In this document: positions 13,825 to 63,172 of the stretch, piece after piece
Numbering within the stretch: the stretch's first letter is position 1
Layout: the number at the start of each line of letters is the position of its first letter
Assembly (NCBI GenBank): GCA_963798845.1
Contig: CAWCUS010000004.1
Coordinates: 96,001-160,000 of the forward strand
Source: an uncultured Gemmatimonadales bacterium
GTDB lineage: Bacteria > Gemmatimonadota > Gemmatimonadetes > Longimicrobiales > RSA9
Length of the DNA: 64,000 nt
Direction: 5' to 3'
The notes under the pieces: model-generated
Database searches by the model: none
The model's input: the letters and a program-made list of their open reading frames with translations, nothing else
Told to the model about the DNA's origin: nothing
Position numbers and translations under genes: made by a program

Positions 13825-16494
<2,670 letters not shown>

Positions 16495-16551
16495 TTTCGA
16501 TTTCCGGATTCCGTGGAGCGCGGTACGCGCGAAATGGTCGAGCAATGTACG

Positions 16552-16581
16552 AGTGTACGTGGCGGCGACCGGTCCGAACAA
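16552..16581 (-). promoter_or_regulatory. Possible ppdK promoter
   Basis: Minus strand TTGTTC, 18 bp spacer, TACACT. Confidence 0.45.
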
Positions 16582-16595
16582 GGCCGGGACGGCGG

Positions 16596-16744
16596 GCTCG
16601 GCCTTCCGGCCTCGCAGAGGGGCTCGGCCTGCGGCCTCGCAGAGGGGCTCGGCCATTCGGCCTCGCAGAGGGGCTCGGCCTGCGGCCTCGCAGAGGGGCT
16701 CGGCCTTGCGGCCTCGCAGAGGGGCTCGGCCCTTCGGGCCTCGC
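16596..16744 (-). repeat. Tandem array of 6 mini-hairpins (GCGA-GGCC-loop-GGCC-GAGC with CCCTCT linker)
   Basis: Plus-strand unit CGGCCTCGCAGAGGGGCTCGGCC with period ~25-26 bp. Variation is confined to the hairpin loops. Confidence 0.95.
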
Positions 16745-16873
16745 AGGCGGTGGGGTAAAGGCGGCCGCATCCCGTCGTGAGCTGGCTGCTTCCGGCCGTC
16801 GTGGCAAGGCAGGCCCATCGCGGGGAGCGCTGGGACGCGGATCGGCCGGGCGACGGAGCCGGACGGGGATCCT

Positions 16874-17133
16874 GCGAACGAAGTGAGCCCCTCTGCGAGG
16901 CCGCAACGCGGCCGAGCCCCTCTGCGAACGAAGTGAGCCCCTCTGCGAGGCCGCAACGCGGCCGAGCCCCTCTGCGAACGAAGTGAGCCCCTCTGCGAGG
17001 CCGCGACGCGGCCGAGCCCCTCTGCGAACGAAGTGAGCCCCTCTGCGAGGCCGCAAGCGGCCGAGCCCCTGCAACGAGTGAGCCCCTCTGCGAACGAAGT
17101 GAGCCCCTCTGCGAGGCCGCAACGCGGCCGAGC
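16874..17133 (+). repeat. Tandem array of 50-bp units with alternating hairpins GCGAACGAAGTGAGC and GCGAGGCCGCAACGCGGCCGAGC
   Basis: About 5 units, 11 hairpins (one degenerate), CCCTCT linkers. Inverted relative to the 16596-16744 array. Confidence 0.95.
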
Positions 17134-17140
17134 CCTGCCT

Positions 17141-18523
17141 TCAGCAGGTGGAGGCGATCGGGAATCCGCGCTCGAGGTCCACGAGCGGCGAGGTGTACTG
17201 GCCGGAGAAGCAGGCGTGGCAGAAGGGGCCGACTGCGGCGACGGCGTCGGTCATGCCCTCGAGCGAGAGATAACCGAGGGAATCCACGTCGAGGTGCTGG
17301 CGGATCTCTTCGACGGTCTTGCGGGAGCCGATGAGCTCCTCACGCGTGGGCATGTCGATGCCGTAGAAGCACGGGTAGCGCACGGGCGGGCTGGAGATCC
17401 GGAAATGGACTTCTTTGGCGCCGGCTTCCCGGAGGAGTCGGACGAGGCCCATGCTTGTGGTGCCGCGCACGAGGGAGTCGTCGACCACCACCACGCGCTG
17501 CCCCTCGAGGACCTCGCGCACGGGGTTGTACTTGATTCGGACGCGGAAGTCGCGTCCGGCCTGCGTGGGGTGTATGAAGGTGCGGCCCACGTAGTGGTTT
17601 CGGATGAGCCCGAGCTCGTACGGGATGCCGCTCTCTTCGGAGAAGCCGAGGGCGGCGGAGTTGGAGGAATCGGGGACGCTGATGACGACGTCGGCGTCGG
17701 CGGGGTGTTCGCGCGCGAGACGTCGTCCGAAGGCGCGTCGGGCGCGGTCCACGCTCTGGCCCCAGATCCGGGAGTCGGGGCGCGCGAAGTAGACGAGCTC
17801 GAAGATGCAGGGGGCGATGGGGTGCTCCCCGCCCACTTCCCGGAGCGACGTGAGCTCGTGGCCCCTGATCCGGACCATCTCGCCCGCCTCGATGTCGCGG
17901 ACGTACTCTGCGCCCACCAGGTCGAGGGCGCAGCTCTCACTGGCGACGATCCAGCCATCGTCGGGGAAGCGGCCGAGGACGAGGGGCCGGAAGCCGTAGG
18001 GGTCGCGGGCCGCGTAGAGGGTTTCGCCGACGGTGATGATGACGCTGACCGCGCCGGTGAGGCGGGAGAGGGCCTCGGAGATCTGCTCGTCGGGCGTGGG
18101 GCAGCGGGAGCGGGAGATCAGGTGGACGATGACCTCGCTGTCGATCGTCCCCTGGAAGAGCGCGCCTTCCTCGACGAGCTCCTCGCGCAGCACGTGGGCG
18201 TTGGTGATGTTCCCGTTGTGGACCAGTCCGAGGTCACCCTCCCGGTAGTTCACGACAATGGGCTGGGCGTTGACCAGCCCCGGACCGCCGGCTGTGGAGT
18301 ATCGAGTGTGCCCGAGTGCCACGTGGCCCGGCAGCGCGGCCAGGTCCGCGTCGTTGAACCCTTCGACGACGAGCCCCTCCCGCTTCATGAGGCGCGCCTT
18401 CCCGTTCTCGGCCACGGCGGCGATCCCCGTCGATTCCTGGCCCCGGTGCTGCAGCGCGTACAGCCCCAGGAAGACCAGCTTGGCCGCTTCCCGCGCGCCG
18501 GTGACGCCTACGATACCGCACAT
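17141..18523 (-). CDS. purF: Amidophosphoribosyltransferase
   Basis: MCGIVG Ntn-Cys, LQHRGQE, GHTRYST, VVVDDSLVRGTT, CHACFSG. Confidence 0.97.
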   Translation of the reverse strand: MCGIVGVTGAREAAKLVFLGLYALQHRGQESTGIAAVAENGKARLMKREGLVVEGFNDADLAALPGHVALGHTRYSTAGGPGLVNAQPIVVNYREGDLGLVHNGNITNAHVLREELVEEGALFQGTIDSEVIVHLISRSRCPTPDEQISEALSRLTGAVSVIITVGETLYAARDPYGFRPLVLGRFPDDGWIVASESCALDLVGAEYVRDIEAGEMVRIRGHELTSLREVGGEHPIAPCIFELVYFARPDSRIWGQSVDRARRAFGRRLAREHPADADVVISVPDSSNSAALGFSEESGIPYELGLIRNHYVGRTFIHPTQAGRDFRVRIKYNPVREVLEGQRVVVVDDSLVRGTTSMGLVRLLREAGAKEVHFRISSPPVRYPCFYGIDMPTREELIGSRKTVEEIRQHLDVDSLGYLSLEGMTDAVAAVGPFCHACFSGQYTSPLVDLERGFPIASTC

Positions 18524-55886: not shown

Positions 55887-58430
55887 ATGACCTGGCGCGA
55901 GTTCATCCGGGTGTTGAACCGGCCCCCGGAGCGTGCGTGGCCGGAGGGCGTGCTCCACCACGGAGCGCGCGCTCTCCTCCTGGTCATCCTGGCCGTGGGG
56001 ACCGTGTTCCTGTTCCCGATCGCGCCTCTCCCCGATTTCCCGGTGGTGGAGAAGGGGATGGTGCCCGATCAGGACGTCGTCGCCGAGATCCCCTTCCCGG
56101 TCTATCGCAGCGAGCAGGAGCTGGAGCGGGCCCGGCAGGACGCGGCGGCGAGCATCAATCCGATCTTCGTTTTCGACTCCACGGCCGTGGATTCGATGCT
56201 GAGCGGCGTGAACCGGTTCTTCGCCCGTGTCGACAGCGTGGCTTCTTCCGATCAGGCGACCGCCACGAAGCGCCGCAGGATGCGGGATCTGCTCGCGGCC
56301 TACGCGCTCCAGCCGCTCTCGGAAGGGTCGAACGGGGACGTGGATCTCCTGATGGACCCGACGGAGCGGCGGCTGCTCCAGCGCACCGTCCGCACCGCGA
56401 TCCTGGACGAGCTCCCCCGCGGAATCGCGACCGCGGCGGAGCTGGAGGAGGCGCAGTCTGACCAGATCCGGCTGATGGGCCATGGCCGCGATCGCGTCGT
56501 GCCGCGGGACTCCATTCGCACGAGCCGCGATTTCTACGACCGCTCCCTCTTCTACGTCCCCACGACGTCGCCGACCGGGTACGAACAGCTGCAGCGGCTG
56601 CTCCTGGTGCGCTTCCTCGTCCCGAGCATCCAACCGGACTGGGAGGCCACCCAGGCGGCGCGGGCGCGCAACCGCGCGGCCGTTCCACTCATCAAGACGG
56701 AAGTGCTGCAGGGGGAGCGGGTCGTGGCGGCGAGGGAGCGCGTCACCGACGAGCAGGTCGAGAAGCTGAAGGCCTACAAGGCCGAGCTGGAGCGGCGCGG
56801 TGAGCTGGGGGAGGACCAGCGCGTGCGCTTCGCGCGCACCACCGGCGTCCTCCTCTTCAGCCTCATCACCATCTCCCTGTTCGGCGCGCTGCTCATCTAC
56901 TACCGGCAGCGGGTGTACGCGAGCATGCGGCAGGTCTCGCTGCTCGCTTTCCTGATGGCCGCGGTCGTGGCCATCGCCGCCGTGCTCGCGTTTCAGGAAT
57001 GGCCGGTCACGCTCATCCCCATCGCGTTCCCGGCGCTGGTGGTGGCCACGCTCTGGGATGGGCGCCTCGCGCTCAACCTCTCGCTCATCACGGCCGTGCT
57101 GCTGAGCGGGCAGACGCCCTTCCTCGGCATCGTCCCGCTCTTCACCCTGGTCGCGGCCGGGGCCGTGGCGTCGCTCGCGGTGCGCGTCGTACGGCGGCGC
57201 TCCCAGACATGGGTCTTCATCGCCCTCATCGCCATCACCTACGCGCTGGTCGGAATCGTCCTCGGCCTGCTGCGCACCTGGTCGCTCGACGAATTCGGCC
57301 GCTTCGTCGGCTGGGGACTGGTGAACGCCATTGCCAGCGCGTTCGCCGCTCTCGGGTTCCTCCCGCTGTTCGAGAGCTTCACCGGGATCACGACCGACCA
57401 GACGCTCCTGGAGCTCGCCGACGCCAACCGGCCGCTCCTGCGACGCCTCTCCATGGAAGCCCCCGGGACCTACGCCCACTCCATCGCCGTGGCCAACCTC
57501 GCGGAAGCCGGCGCCGACGCCATCGACGCCCATGCGCTTCTGGTTCGGGTCGGCGTCTACTATCACGACGTGGGCAAGATCGCGCGGCCGCAGTTCTTCA
57601 TCGAGAACCAGCCGAGCGGGCGCAACCCGCACGACCGCCTTAAGCCGGCCCTTTCGGCTCAGGTGATTCGCAACCACGTCGTCGAGGGCGTCCGCCTCGC
57701 CGAGGATGAAGGGCTGCCGGCGTGCGTGAAGGCGTTCATCACCGAGCACCACGGGACGCAGAACATCAGCTTCTTCCTCGACCAGGCCCGGGAGGCGGAG
57801 CCCGACGCCGAGCTCGACCCGCGCGACTTCGCGTATCCGGGGCCCCGCCCGCAATCCCGCGAGACGGCCGTGGCCATGCTCGCCGACTCCGTCGAGTCCG
57901 CCGCCCGCGTTCTCCCCGACCCCACACCGGACAGCATCCGAAAGCTCGTGGAGCGGATCGTTCAGGCCAAGATCGATGCCGGCCAGCTCGATGAGACTCC
58001 GATCACCATTGCCGAGCTCAAGACCGTGAAGGAGCAGTTCGTCACAGTCCTCACGGGCATGTACCATCAGCGCATCGACTACCCGCCCCGTGGCCAGGGA
58101 CCCCAGAACGGGGAGAGCGGCGCCGGCAGCAAGGCGCCAGCGTCCCTGGCTCCCGGCGACCCGGCTCCAGGGAGCCAGGCTCCGCCCGCCCCGGCTCCGG
58201 ACGGCCAGCCTTCGGGGGAGCCGGCTCCAGCCGACTCCGGTCCGGACGGGCGCGCTCCTGACGGCCGCGCTCCGGACGGCCGCGCTCCGGACGGCCGCGC
58301 TCCGGACGGCCGCGCTCCGGACGGCGTGGCCCCGCACGATGCGGTCGCGGACGAGCGGGGCCCGGCCGGGGCGGCCCGAGCCGGGACGTCGGAGGACGGG
58401 GCCCCCGCGCCGGGGGCGCCGGCGCGCTGA
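55887..58430 (+). CDS. 7TM-HD phosphohydrolase (PgpH/YqfF-like)
   Basis: Extracellular domain, multiple TM segments, EAPGTYAHS, YHDVGK, FFIENQ, EHHGT, ADSVESAAR. Confidence 0.92.
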   Translation: MTWREFIRVLNRPPERAWPEGVLHHGARALLLVILAVGTVFLFPIAPLPDFPVVEKGMVPDQDVVAEIPFPVYRSEQELERARQDAAASINPIFVFDSTAVDSMLSGVNRFFARVDSVASSDQATATKRRRMRDLLAAYALQPLSEGSNGDVDLLMDPTERRLLQRTVRTAILDELPRGIATAAELEEAQSDQIRLMGHGRDRVVPRDSIRTSRDFYDRSLFYVPTTSPTGYEQLQRLLLVRFLVPSIQPDWEATQAARARNRAAVPLIKTEVLQGERVVAARERVTDEQVEKLKAYKAELERRGELGEDQRVRFARTTGVLLFSLITISLFGALLIYYRQRVYASMRQVSLLAFLMAAVVAIAAVLAFQEWPVTLIPIAFPALVVATLWDGRLALNLSLITAVLLSGQTPFLGIVPLFTLVAAGAVASLAVRVVRRRSQTWVFIALIAITYALVGIVLGLLRTWSLDEFGRFVGWGLVNAIASAFAALGFLPLFESFTGITTDQTLLELADANRPLLRRLSMEAPGTYAHSIAVANLAEAGADAIDAHALLVRVGVYYHDVGKIARPQFFIENQPSGRNPHDRLKPALSAQVIRNHVVEGVRLAEDEGLPACVKAFITEHHGTQNISFFLDQAREAEPDAELDPRDFAYPGPRPQSRETAVAMLADSVESAARVLPDPTPDSIRKLVERIVQAKIDAGQLDETPITIAELKTVKEQFVTVLTGMYHQRIDYPPRGQGPQNGESGAGSKAPASLAPGDPAPGSQAPPAPAPDGQPSGEPAPADSGPDGRAPDGRAPDGRAPDGRAPDGRAPDGVAPHDAVADERGPAGAARAGTSEDGAPAPGAPAR
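58241..58325 (+). repeat. 15-bp coding tandem repeat (PDGRA) x ~5.7
   Basis: TCCGGACGGCCGCGC units in the C-terminal tail of the HD protein. Confidence 0.95.
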
Positions 58431-62645: not shown

Positions 62646-62922
62646 CGGGTCGGAAGCTGCGGCCCGCCAGGGAGCAGAGCGGCGCCGGGGGAGGAAGGCG
62701 GCGCCAGGTCCGGGCGCCCCCCCGGGAAACCCGACCGATCGGGACCGCTGGCGATGCCGATGGCCCCTTTCGGGCCTATGGCGCCGCATATCGACCCTCC
62801 GATCACGCGTCCGCTTCCCGAGTGGTCGCTCGCCGGTGATGGACACCCGAAATCGACCACCGGCGCTCGACGTGGCATCGCGTGGTCGCTCGACCGGCCG
62901 CCCGGGACCGCGCACCGCCCGC

Positions 62923-63172
62923 GCCCTCCCGCCCCCTCCCGCCCTCCCTCCCGCCCTCCCGCCCTCCCGCCCTCCCGCCCTCCCGCCCTCCCGCCCGCCC
63001 TCCCGCCCTCCCTCCCTCCCTCCCGCCCTCCCGCCACTCCCTCCCTCCCGCCCTCCCGCCATCCCGCCATCCCTCCCGCCATCCCGCCATCCCTCGCCAT
63101 CCCGCCATCCCTCCCTCCCTCCCGCCCTCCCGCCCTCCCGCCCTCCCTCCCTCCCGCGCTCCATCCCGCCCG
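62923..63172. repeat. C-rich microsatellite tract (CCCG/CCCT/CCAT units)
   Basis: About 250 bp of 4-nt-period CCCN, forming (CCCGCCCT)n and (CCCGCCAT)n blocks. Confidence 0.92.

Follow-up and report, generated by a model that had tools for sequence, protein, structure and literature searches.

Tandem mini-hairpin arrays between ppdK and a purF-like gene in a Gemmatimonadota genome: candidate orphan arms of a PF05635 cassette

Two inverted arrays between ppdK and a purF-like gene

We analysed a stretch of 64,000 nucleotides from an uncultured Gemmatimonadales bacterium (C4:96001-160000 of a 4.26-Mb genome in six contigs with 70.6% G+C; the whole stretch is called the window), and in it the intergenic region between the pyruvate phosphate dikinase gene ppdK and a purF-like amidophosphoribosyltransferase gene, which holds two tandem arrays of short hairpins (Table 1). 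In what follows G000 is the genome carrying the window, G001 is its sister species, and other G numbers are relatives. Some of the family tallies include the unpublished genomes G016, G017, G020, G026 and G458, and locus L196 comes from G020; no statement rests on any of these singly.

The two divergent arrays have the unit numbers and strands that the first-pass annotation of this DNA had given, the linker is CCCTCT throughout, and the flanking genes are those the annotation had named. Their Pfam matches agree with the names, with the qualification that the Pribosyltran match in the purF-like open reading frame (ORF) reaches 24.4 bits, under its cut-off of 26.3. Read on the minus strand, the left-array unit is CCCTCT-GCGA-GGCC(C)-loop-(G)GGCC-GAGC, with loops that run GGAA, GCA, GAAT, GCA, GCAA and GAA in plus-strand order; Tandem Repeats Finder reports a period of 26 with 5.9 copies and 92% matches. 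In the right array, GCGA-AC-GAA-GT-GAGC units alternate with GCGA-GGCCGC-AAC/GAC-GCGGCC-GAGC units in a higher-order period of 50 bp (4.5 copies, 96% matches). The one degenerate copy that had been reported lies at about 17068-17083, and the unit at 17045-17067 has a shortened loop. The last repeat unit ends 7 nt from the purF-like stop codon. At the other end the ppdK start codon occupies 16492-16494, and on the minus strand ppdK is the gene downstream of the arrays.

Across the window, the loose word GCGA-N5-17-GAGCC occurs at chance level (48 found versus 41.7 expected), so the entire signal resides in the 16 intact units. An Rfam scan of 16000-17700 returned noise only (best E-value 0.26, inside purF), and a consensus scan of the locus found no promoter and no terminator. 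Between the arrays and ppdK, a local alignment to G001 reaches the array boundary (score 116, about 110 nt), a degree of conservation that would fit a ppdK promoter or leader; the spacer between the arrays has no homology to the G001 spacer (alignment score only 22). Among the sequencing runs listed for the locus there was no RNA set, and only two metagenome contig sets contain 0.10-0.11 of the locus words, with contigs of 52-56 nt mapping onto the left array and identical 151-nt contigs onto the flanks, and no contig crosses an entire array. Because these metagenome runs may be the source sample, they give no independent support for the array copy number.

Table 1. Coordinates of the features at the ppdK-purF locus and of genes elsewhere in G000 that bear on the origin of the arrays
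Feature	Sequence	Coordinates	Strand	Evidence or remark
ppdK (pyruvate phosphate dikinase) ORF	window	13825-16494	-	PF02896 269 bits, PF01326 194 bits, PF00391 82 bits
ppdK upstream region	window	16495-16593	-	conserved in G001 to the first repeat unit
Left array, 6 units	window	16594-16746 (units 16595-16744)	GA-form on -	tandem-repeat scan
Spacer between arrays, 125 bp	window	16747-16871		no ORF of note
Right array, 11 units (10 intact, 1 degenerate)	window	16872-17133	+	tandem-repeat scan
purF-like amidophosphoribosyltransferase ORF	window	17141-18523	-	GATase_7 69.7 bits, GATase_6 64.5 bits
PF05635 four-helix-bundle ORF, 136 codons	C1	733965-734372		39.9 bits (cut-off 33.8)
Second PF05635 gene	C6	1185657-1185971		between arms of a second clamped mini-hairpin family
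Y1_Tnp-like HUH protein, ~300 aa	C1	549673-550716		HUH and Y motifs
Y1_Tnp-like HUH protein, ~300 aa	C5	284171-285586		HUH and Y motifs
Y1_Tnp-like HUH protein, ~300 aa	C5	398618-399658		HUH and Y motifs
Y1_Tnp-like fragment	C2	167331-167657		PF01797-like

Unit structure, stem covariation and hairpin chemistry

Between consecutive linkers in G000 we gathered 230 units, which represent 58 distinct sequences. A unit consists of the 6-nt pyrimidine linker and a hairpin whose foot is G-C, C-G and then G/A opposite A/G. Most units (196 of 230) belong to type I, GC-GA-stem-loop-stem-GA-GC, whose inner stems are of 11 kinds and include GGCC, GGGC/GCCC, AC/GT, GC, GAC/GTC, GACC/GGTC, GGCCGC and AGCCCC/GGGGCT. 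That the stems vary and nevertheless pair, as had been claimed for the single locus, applies to the whole collection: the arms are fully complementary in 34 of the 35 distinct regular type I units, whereas shuffling of the 3' arms (n=2000) gave a mean of 7.1 complementary units and a maximum of 14, and the helix is uninterrupted in 208 of 230 units. The remaining 34 units are not of the GCGA/GAGC type, and most of them read GCGC...GCGC, with the G/A-A/G foot replaced by G-C/C-G, so the otherwise invariant GA and AG positions face each other in the helix. These units are the sole covariation evidence that the GA/AG positions pair. Type I loops are of the form G..A in 138 of 196 units (GAA, GCA, GTCA, GCCA and others) and T..C in none; taken with the G/A foot, this places the purine features always on the strand of the pyrimidine linker.

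Both features resemble published DNA chemistry. Excerpts of PMC13037366 and PMC3201870 give d(GCGAAGC) a melting temperature (Tm) of 76.5 C and a sheared G-A pair, and the former gives 39 C for the RNA counterpart r(GCGAAAGC). The same excerpt of PMC13037366 describes mini-hairpins of this kind as binding single-stranded DNA-binding protein (SSB) poorly, as resistant to nucleases, and as used at phage origins and N4 promoters, and an excerpt of PMC4513846 describes Streptomyces telomere palindromes whose GCA loops are closed by sheared G:A pairs and bound by Tap. The units share C(GNA)G and C(GNNA)G loops with the stable d(GCGNAGC)/d(GCGNNAGC) hairpins (PMC13037366, in part), and share adjacent packed hairpins and G/A oppositions in the stem with mini-hairpin DNA and the telomere palindromes (PMC13037366 and PMC4513846, in part). 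As described in those excerpts, the published hairpins are single strands at replicon ends or phage origins with known binding proteins; the G000 arrays, unlike them, are chromosome-internal and stand in either orientation to replication.

The unusual stability that the first-pass annotation had ascribed to the GA strand is thus drawn from the literature. By analogy with the published hairpins the GA strand would be the more stable; nearest-neighbour models (Turner 2004 and Mathews 2004, whose parameters have no terms for special motifs) give the GA and TC strands equal folding energy. These observations bear on one alternative, namely that the arrays are a host device for single-stranded DNA (ssDNA), in which stable, SSB-excluding mini-hairpins would serve priming, fork handling or as a landing pad for proteins. 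It would account for the presence of all C(GNA)G and C(GNNA)G loops and Y-GA-R tandem G/A feet on one strand, and it draws on the published Tm of about 76 C, the poor SSB binding and nuclease resistance, the phage-origin and N4-promoter uses (PMC13037366, in part) and the Tap-bound telomere palindromes (PMC4513846, in part). We nevertheless hold it highly improbable, given that the unpaired arrays have no significant leading/lagging bias (6 on the G-rich versus 14 on the C-rich strand), that the sites are not conserved in G001, and that the folding models show no strand difference.

A genome-wide population of arrays

The ppdK-purF arrays are a single locus within a population of tandem mini-hairpins that extends over the genome and numbers about 30 arrays and about 230 units. 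The junction 14-mer GAGCCCCTCTGCGA has 182 exact matches in G000 (87 forward, 95 reverse), which form 24 clusters, versus 0 and 1 for its reversed control. A seed that also admits a CCCCCT linker was found 271 times, and 244 of these occurrences group into 30 arrays, each on one strand and with 4-19 seeds; the reversed-genome control gives 70 scattered seeds. All 30 arrays are intergenic and many begin 0-30 nt from a stop codon, as far as a crude gene caller based on GC3 could place the genes. No array lies on contig C5 (403 kb). Together they make up about 25 loci, as 10 arrays form five inverted pairs and 20 are solo. The family is thus dispersed and structured rather than local, as had been suspected from the one locus, and it appears to be undescribed: it has no Rfam match and we found none in the literature searched. 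Generic detection of hairpin clusters was too noisy in DNA of 70% G+C. Higher-order tandem periods occur at ppdK-purF (50 bp) and at C1:733.8k (54 and 84 bp), as would be expected if blocks of several units were multiplied by slippage or unequal exchange. A further array of the same family, of 8-9 GGCCGC-GAA units, lies between convergent genes at C4:95054-95317, some 700 bp ahead of the window start.

Polarity and predicted folding of paired arrays

Within 250 nt of a GA-form array, an inverted partner was found on the 5' side for 8 of 30 arrays and on the 3' side for 0 of 30. The outward polarity proposed for the ppdK-purF pair recurs in all pairs that were listed within 600 nt: at least five in G000, three in G453, one in G468, five in G446 and seven in G005, so that all 21 listed pairs from five genomes are (-,+) and none is (+,-). 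The central core, in contrast, is not a conserved part: the cores of the five G000 pairs bear no relation to one another and range in length from 0 to about 430 bp.

For the single strand 16580-17145, a partition-function calculation gives about 122 expected inter-array base pairs versus 20-30 local ones, with inter-array pairing preferred on either strand and under RNA and DNA parameters alike. The predicted fold is a stem of about 150 bp that closes a 125-nt loop, and in solo arrays only local hairpins can form. When single-stranded, the ppdK-purF pair might therefore fold either as local mini-hairpins or as this one long stem. The predicted topology is that of the ORF-bearing 23S intervening sequences (IVS); in the excerpt of PMC4990558, the IVS of Coxiella burnetii, which carries S23p, is described as a stem-loop excised by RNase III. 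In a purF-ppdK read-through transcript, the stem of about 150 bp could terminate transcription or offer a site for RNase III-type processing.

A host RNA element is another candidate explanation, with the units as factor-independent terminators, 3'-end protectors, RNase III sites or an anti-Shine-Dalgarno-like display of CCCUCU. The intergenic position, often directly behind stop codons, the predicted long stem between purF and ppdK, the resemblance of the linker complement AGAGGG/AGGAGG to Shine-Dalgarno sequences and the RNase III cleavage of a 23S IVS of the same gene family (PMC4990558, in part) all speak for it. We consider it very unlikely as the primary explanation, because relative to the gene upstream the arrays stand either way round (about 12 GA-form versus 9 TC-form by the crude gene caller), a G-T position was scored only once, in one of 58 distinct units, and the consensus scan found no T-tract terminators. 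In addition, the loops obey the DNA mini-hairpin rule, and RNA versions of such hairpins melt at far lower temperature (PMC13037366, in part). RNA or ssDNA functions at the host level are possible as side effects or co-options.

Comparison with relatives and the sister species

The exact 14-mer GAGCCCCTCTGCGA occurs in G000 only, among 41 genomes, and in 400 genomes of the phylum the unit GCGAACGAAGTGAGCC was found 26 times in G000, three times in G005, once in G243 and in no others. With three linker positions freed, large numbers among 73 same-family genomes were seen only in G000 (195), G453 (113) and G468 (31). The hairpin units are common to all three and the linkers are particular to each: CCCTCT in G000, CATACT/CACACT/CACCCT in G453 and CCACCT/CCTCCT/CCCCCT in G468. 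This patchy distribution over three genomes is partly an artefact of fixing CT before GCGA, as allowing TT at that position adds an excess in G005 (101 versus 20 in the control), G454 (82 versus 30) and G446 (40 versus 14). The still looser word YTGCGA-N5-17-GAGCC has too high a background to rank genomes, and reversing it does not give a properly matched control. A contig search with GAGCCNNNCTGCGA-N5-17-GAGCCNNNCTGCGA listed at least 87 matches; those listed were mostly coding sequence or simple repeats, and one Gemmatimonadetes metagenome-assembled genome among them was useful.

Six G000 sites were compared with their counterparts in G001. An empty site, which the first-pass annotation had proposed looking for in relatives, was found at ppdK-purF itself: G001 has no unit there, its left flank is conserved to the array edge and the remainder is unrelated. 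The counterpart of C1:719902, where the G000 array begins at the stop codon, is 75 bp of unrelated sequence. Units are present at other sites, with a (-,+) doublet of single units at the counterpart of C1:426766 and four degenerate units at that of C1:6415. At C1:837548-837783, about 11 AC-GAA-GT units end 8 nt before the GTG of a gene that we take, from its N-terminal peptide alone, to encode a DNA polymerase III alpha-like (dnaE-like) protein, and G001 has one or two units at the same upstream site. The arrays therefore expand in place and also occur where the sister species has none.

In-place growth is what plain local variable-number tandem repeats (VNTRs) would show, that is, ancestral terminator-like hairpins amplified by slippage and homogenised by gene conversion, with neither a trans factor nor mobility. 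The expansion at the dnaE-like gene, from one unit in G001 to about 11 in G000, the 50-, 54- and 84-bp higher-order periods and the many arrays that begin 0-30 nt from a stop codon by the crude gene calls are all in line with such an origin. Three observations make it unlikely as a full account. The 14-mer is identical in 182 copies and 24 clusters although the stems differ; three of the compared G001 sites hold unrelated sequence or nothing, with no seed unit; and neither the 21-to-0 polarity nor the recurrence around one gene family described below would be expected from slippage alone.

The same repeats bracket a PF05635 gene

One inverted pair in G000, C1:733789(-)/734440(+), encloses an ORF of the PF05635 family ('23S rRNA intervening sequence protein'). 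In G001, the cassette and its arms (884 bp) are replaced by about 125 bp. The best non-self homologues among the 72 other family genomes are in G453 (84.9 bits, 47% identity), G446 (79.2 bits) and G468 (76.2 bits, 47%). In G453, G446, G468 and G005 the PF05635 gene likewise stands between a TC-form array and GA-form units; in G454 the TC-form arm was seen and the contig ends inside the gene. The PF05635 proteins of these five relatives are 32-49% identical to that of G000, and all score above the Pfam cut-off. In each of G000, G453 and G468, the cassette arms bear the same linker as the dispersed arrays of that genome.

The cassette lies behind the same ABC-transporter gene in G453, G005, G454 and G446. 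In G453 it is followed by a response-regulator gene, and the G468 contig has, as judged by eye, a response-regulator-like gene on the other side. In G000 some 110 bp separate the ABC-transporter gene from the response-regulator gene, and no units lie there. The G000 cassette is therefore elsewhere than at the relatives' site, and it is absent from G001; it was either relocated or is a new gain.

A second clamped mini-hairpin family accompanies the second PF05635 gene of G000, in the region C6:1185330-1186260. Its unit of about 45 nt has the linker TTCGAATC and combines a CCCGC-GCA-GCGGG hairpin with a GCGA-GCCGC-GCAA-GCGGC-GAGC hairpin; the loops are TGC/TTC to the left of the gene and GCA/GAA/GTCA to the right. 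Gene-less arrays of this second family are present at five other loci (C6:17.3k, 26.1k, 490.7k and 1072.7k, and C1:831.1k). In several genomes PF05635 cassettes recur at one site, seen at C6:1185657 of G000 and at the loci L181, L185, L194 and L201. On one side of it is a gene whose product ends in ...HHPEAKYFSV and on the other a gene whose product begins with ...RPHVFDGAMGT; from these end peptides we presume both to be metH-like. The site looks like an insertion hot spot.

Many of 24 further PF05635-like loci in other genomes have plain tandem repeats, inverted to each other, on their two sides. Of 29 related loci that were surveyed coarsely, 14 have at least 10 inverted 10-mers common to both flanks, and G-rich left with C-rich right flanks (13 loci) are seen more often than the opposite arrangement (5 loci). 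A metagenome scan for relatives of the G000 gene yielded four loci only, which have plain-repeat arms. Like an ORF-bearing 23S IVS (PMC4990558, in part), the repeat-armed PF05635 cassettes have a gene of the same family between two complementary arms and are gained and lost as a unit. The ppdK-purF pair has the same kind of mutually complementary, inverted tandem arms, with linkers that are purine- and G-rich in the 5' arm and C-rich in the 3' arm, and the two arms are predicted to pair into a long stem. It differs from both in having no PF05635 ORF, and from the 23S IVS in lying between protein genes, not in rRNA. Where the plain arms of other PF05635 cassettes consist of 6-9-nt repeats, the arms here consist of self-folding hairpin units, multiplied to about 30 arrays that are mostly solo.

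Relation to REP elements and other repeat classes

The first-pass annotation had connected the arrays with repetitive extragenic palindromic (REP) elements and with REP-associated tyrosine transposases (RAYTs) of the HUH class. An enzyme-driven origin of this kind, with a RAYT-like HUH (Y1) protein recognising the hairpin foot on ssDNA, has several points for it: the units are short palindromes dispersed between genes, some of them in inverted doublets, and G000 encodes three Y1_Tnp-like proteins and one fragment (Table 1). By eye, the three proteins have an apparent C-terminal helix-turn-helix. No units were found within 600 bp of any of the four HUH loci, two of which are on the array-free contig C5, and the HUH family was not found in the array-rich G468 (98% complete) yet is present in G001, which has almost no units. 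We therefore rejected the RAYT link, as no HUH gene is flanked by units and the distribution of the family does not follow that of the arrays. The bracketing of a PF05635 gene by the same arrays in G000 and relatives indicates a parent element other than a RAYT. These findings agree with the earlier suggestion that the element is non-autonomous and that the window holds no cognate gene; the candidate partner, the PF05635 gene, is on C1.

The form of the units also departs from that of known classes. REPs carry a conserved GTAG-type tetranucleotide at the 5' foot, whereas the foot here is GCGA...GAGC or GCGC...GCGC. In the bacterial interspersed mosaic elements (BIMEs) of Escherichia coli, REPs alternate in orientation with defined inter-REP motifs, and the variable-number mycobacterial interspersed repetitive units (MIRU-VNTRs) are 40-100-bp non-palindromic units. 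The arrays are like both in being intergenic clusters of units whose copy number differs between relatives. Unlike those of a BIME, the units of one array all share an orientation, save for a small number of type II units that are palindromic throughout and have TCC loops, and neither BIMEs nor MIRUs have a unit made of a linker and a clamped hairpin. CRISPR arrays have repeats of 23-50 nt, unique spacers of about the same length and cas genes or a leader. An identification as such an array was rejected, as only 14 nt stay constant here and what varies is a palindrome of 5-17 nt that recurs many times.

The nearest likeness is to the REPs of Pseudomonas and Enterobacteria and their hairpin-forming doublets (REPINs), which, as far as the excerpts of PMC3337134 and PMC3116915 go, are short imperfect palindromes in intergenic positions, in tens to hundreds of copies with inverted doublets, uniform within a genome, different between lineages and regarded as non-autonomous. 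The repeats described here are likewise taken to be non-autonomous, and their linker is uniform within a genome and different between genomes, as in REPIN-RAYT pairs (PMC3337134, in part). In place of single doublets, they form head-to-tail arrays in which 4-20 units are joined by a 6-nt linker of fixed sequence, and the gene flanked by units is PF05635 and not a transposase. The five inverted pairs of fixed polarity (10 of 30 arrays) and one single-unit doublet in G001 might correspond to the REPIN form, two inverted REPs with a short spacer; the 20 other arrays are solo, and the units are in tandem. With these differences, mobilisation by an HUH enzyme seems to us quite unlikely. In its behaviour the family is REP-like, in its architecture it resembles IVS cassettes, and its chemistry is that of mini-hairpin DNA; we do not count it as a member of the REP-RAYT group. 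Our literature search found no description of palindromic intergenic repeats in Gemmatimonadetes/Gemmatimonadota and nothing relevant joining four-helix-bundle proteins to rRNA intervening sequences. Within this scope, the hairpin-type cassette arms and their putative genome-wide orphans are new.

Two other tandem repeats were seen in the window. At 62922-63162, a 240-bp C-rich array (CGCCCTCC and variants, about 30 copies) with no inverted partner within 2 kb lies just upstream of an ORF with the P-loop motif GPPGAGKST, which we guess from this motif alone to be MeaB/ArgK-like. At 58148-58353, tandem repeats with a 15-nt period (TCCGGACGGCCGCGC) were read by eye as a low-complexity tail, the 3' part of a putative coding region.

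Discussion

In our reading the ppdK-purF arrays are orphan arms, copied from the PF05635 cassette on C1 but lacking its gene, which were enlarged by slippage and form one member of a REP-like population, because they have the same repeats, architecture and polarity as the arms at C1:733965-734372. We regard this as probable, if not strongly so. The pair may be what remained as a footprint once the gene was lost, or it may be a non-autonomous derivative. Arrays would grow in place by replication slippage or unequal exchange, and new loci would arise when arms move with or without the gene. The PF05635 four-helix-bundle protein may bind the linker and the foot. That the arrays derive from the cassette and are served by it we infer from the identity of the repeats and from their architecture.

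A number of observations weigh against this interpretation. The gene is present at only one of about 25 array loci in G000, tblastn found no remnant of a PF05635 gene at any other G000 array, and at E<=1 it found no four-helix-bundle gene remnant at 16747-16871 or near the locus. The core of the ppdK-purF pair is unrelated to the PF05635 gene, and 20 of 30 arrays are unpaired. Across 73 genomes, the excess of repeats follows the best homologue's score no more than loosely: in G455 the excess is clear (179 versus 104) and the homologue reaches only 35.5 bits, and G446 has a homologue of 79 bits with a modest repeat excess. We know of no catalytic activity in the four-helix-bundle family. Finally, the dominant genomic repeat could have overwritten the cassette arms by gene conversion, which would reverse the link.

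A more general proposal goes beyond the orphan-arm reading of this locus, and we find it doubtful. PF05635 (23S-IVS/Avd) proteins might recognise the linker and the foot of their own flanking repeats and form with them mobile cassettes that lack a canonical transposase, whose arms would in some Gemmatimonadota have escaped as self-propagating, REPIN-like mini-hairpins with a non-HUH partner.

For genome analysis, arrays of this type disrupt short-read assemblies, as at the contig ends of G468, and linker-specific searches miss them. We know of no description of GNA mini-loops combined with tandem G/A oppositions at such density in a chromosome, and the arrays offer a natural test bed for non-B DNA in vivo. 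REP-like repeats are among the commonest non-coding features of bacteria, and the RAYT transposase is their only established parent. In G000 a REP-like population has the same sequence as cassette arms around a gene of PF05635, a family of unknown function whose members are found in rRNA intervening sequences and, as Avd (with which one paper on these elements equates PF05635), in diversity-generating retroelements. If the link is causal, PF05635 would gain a testable function, the binding of structured repeats, and REP-like repeats would gain a second origin.

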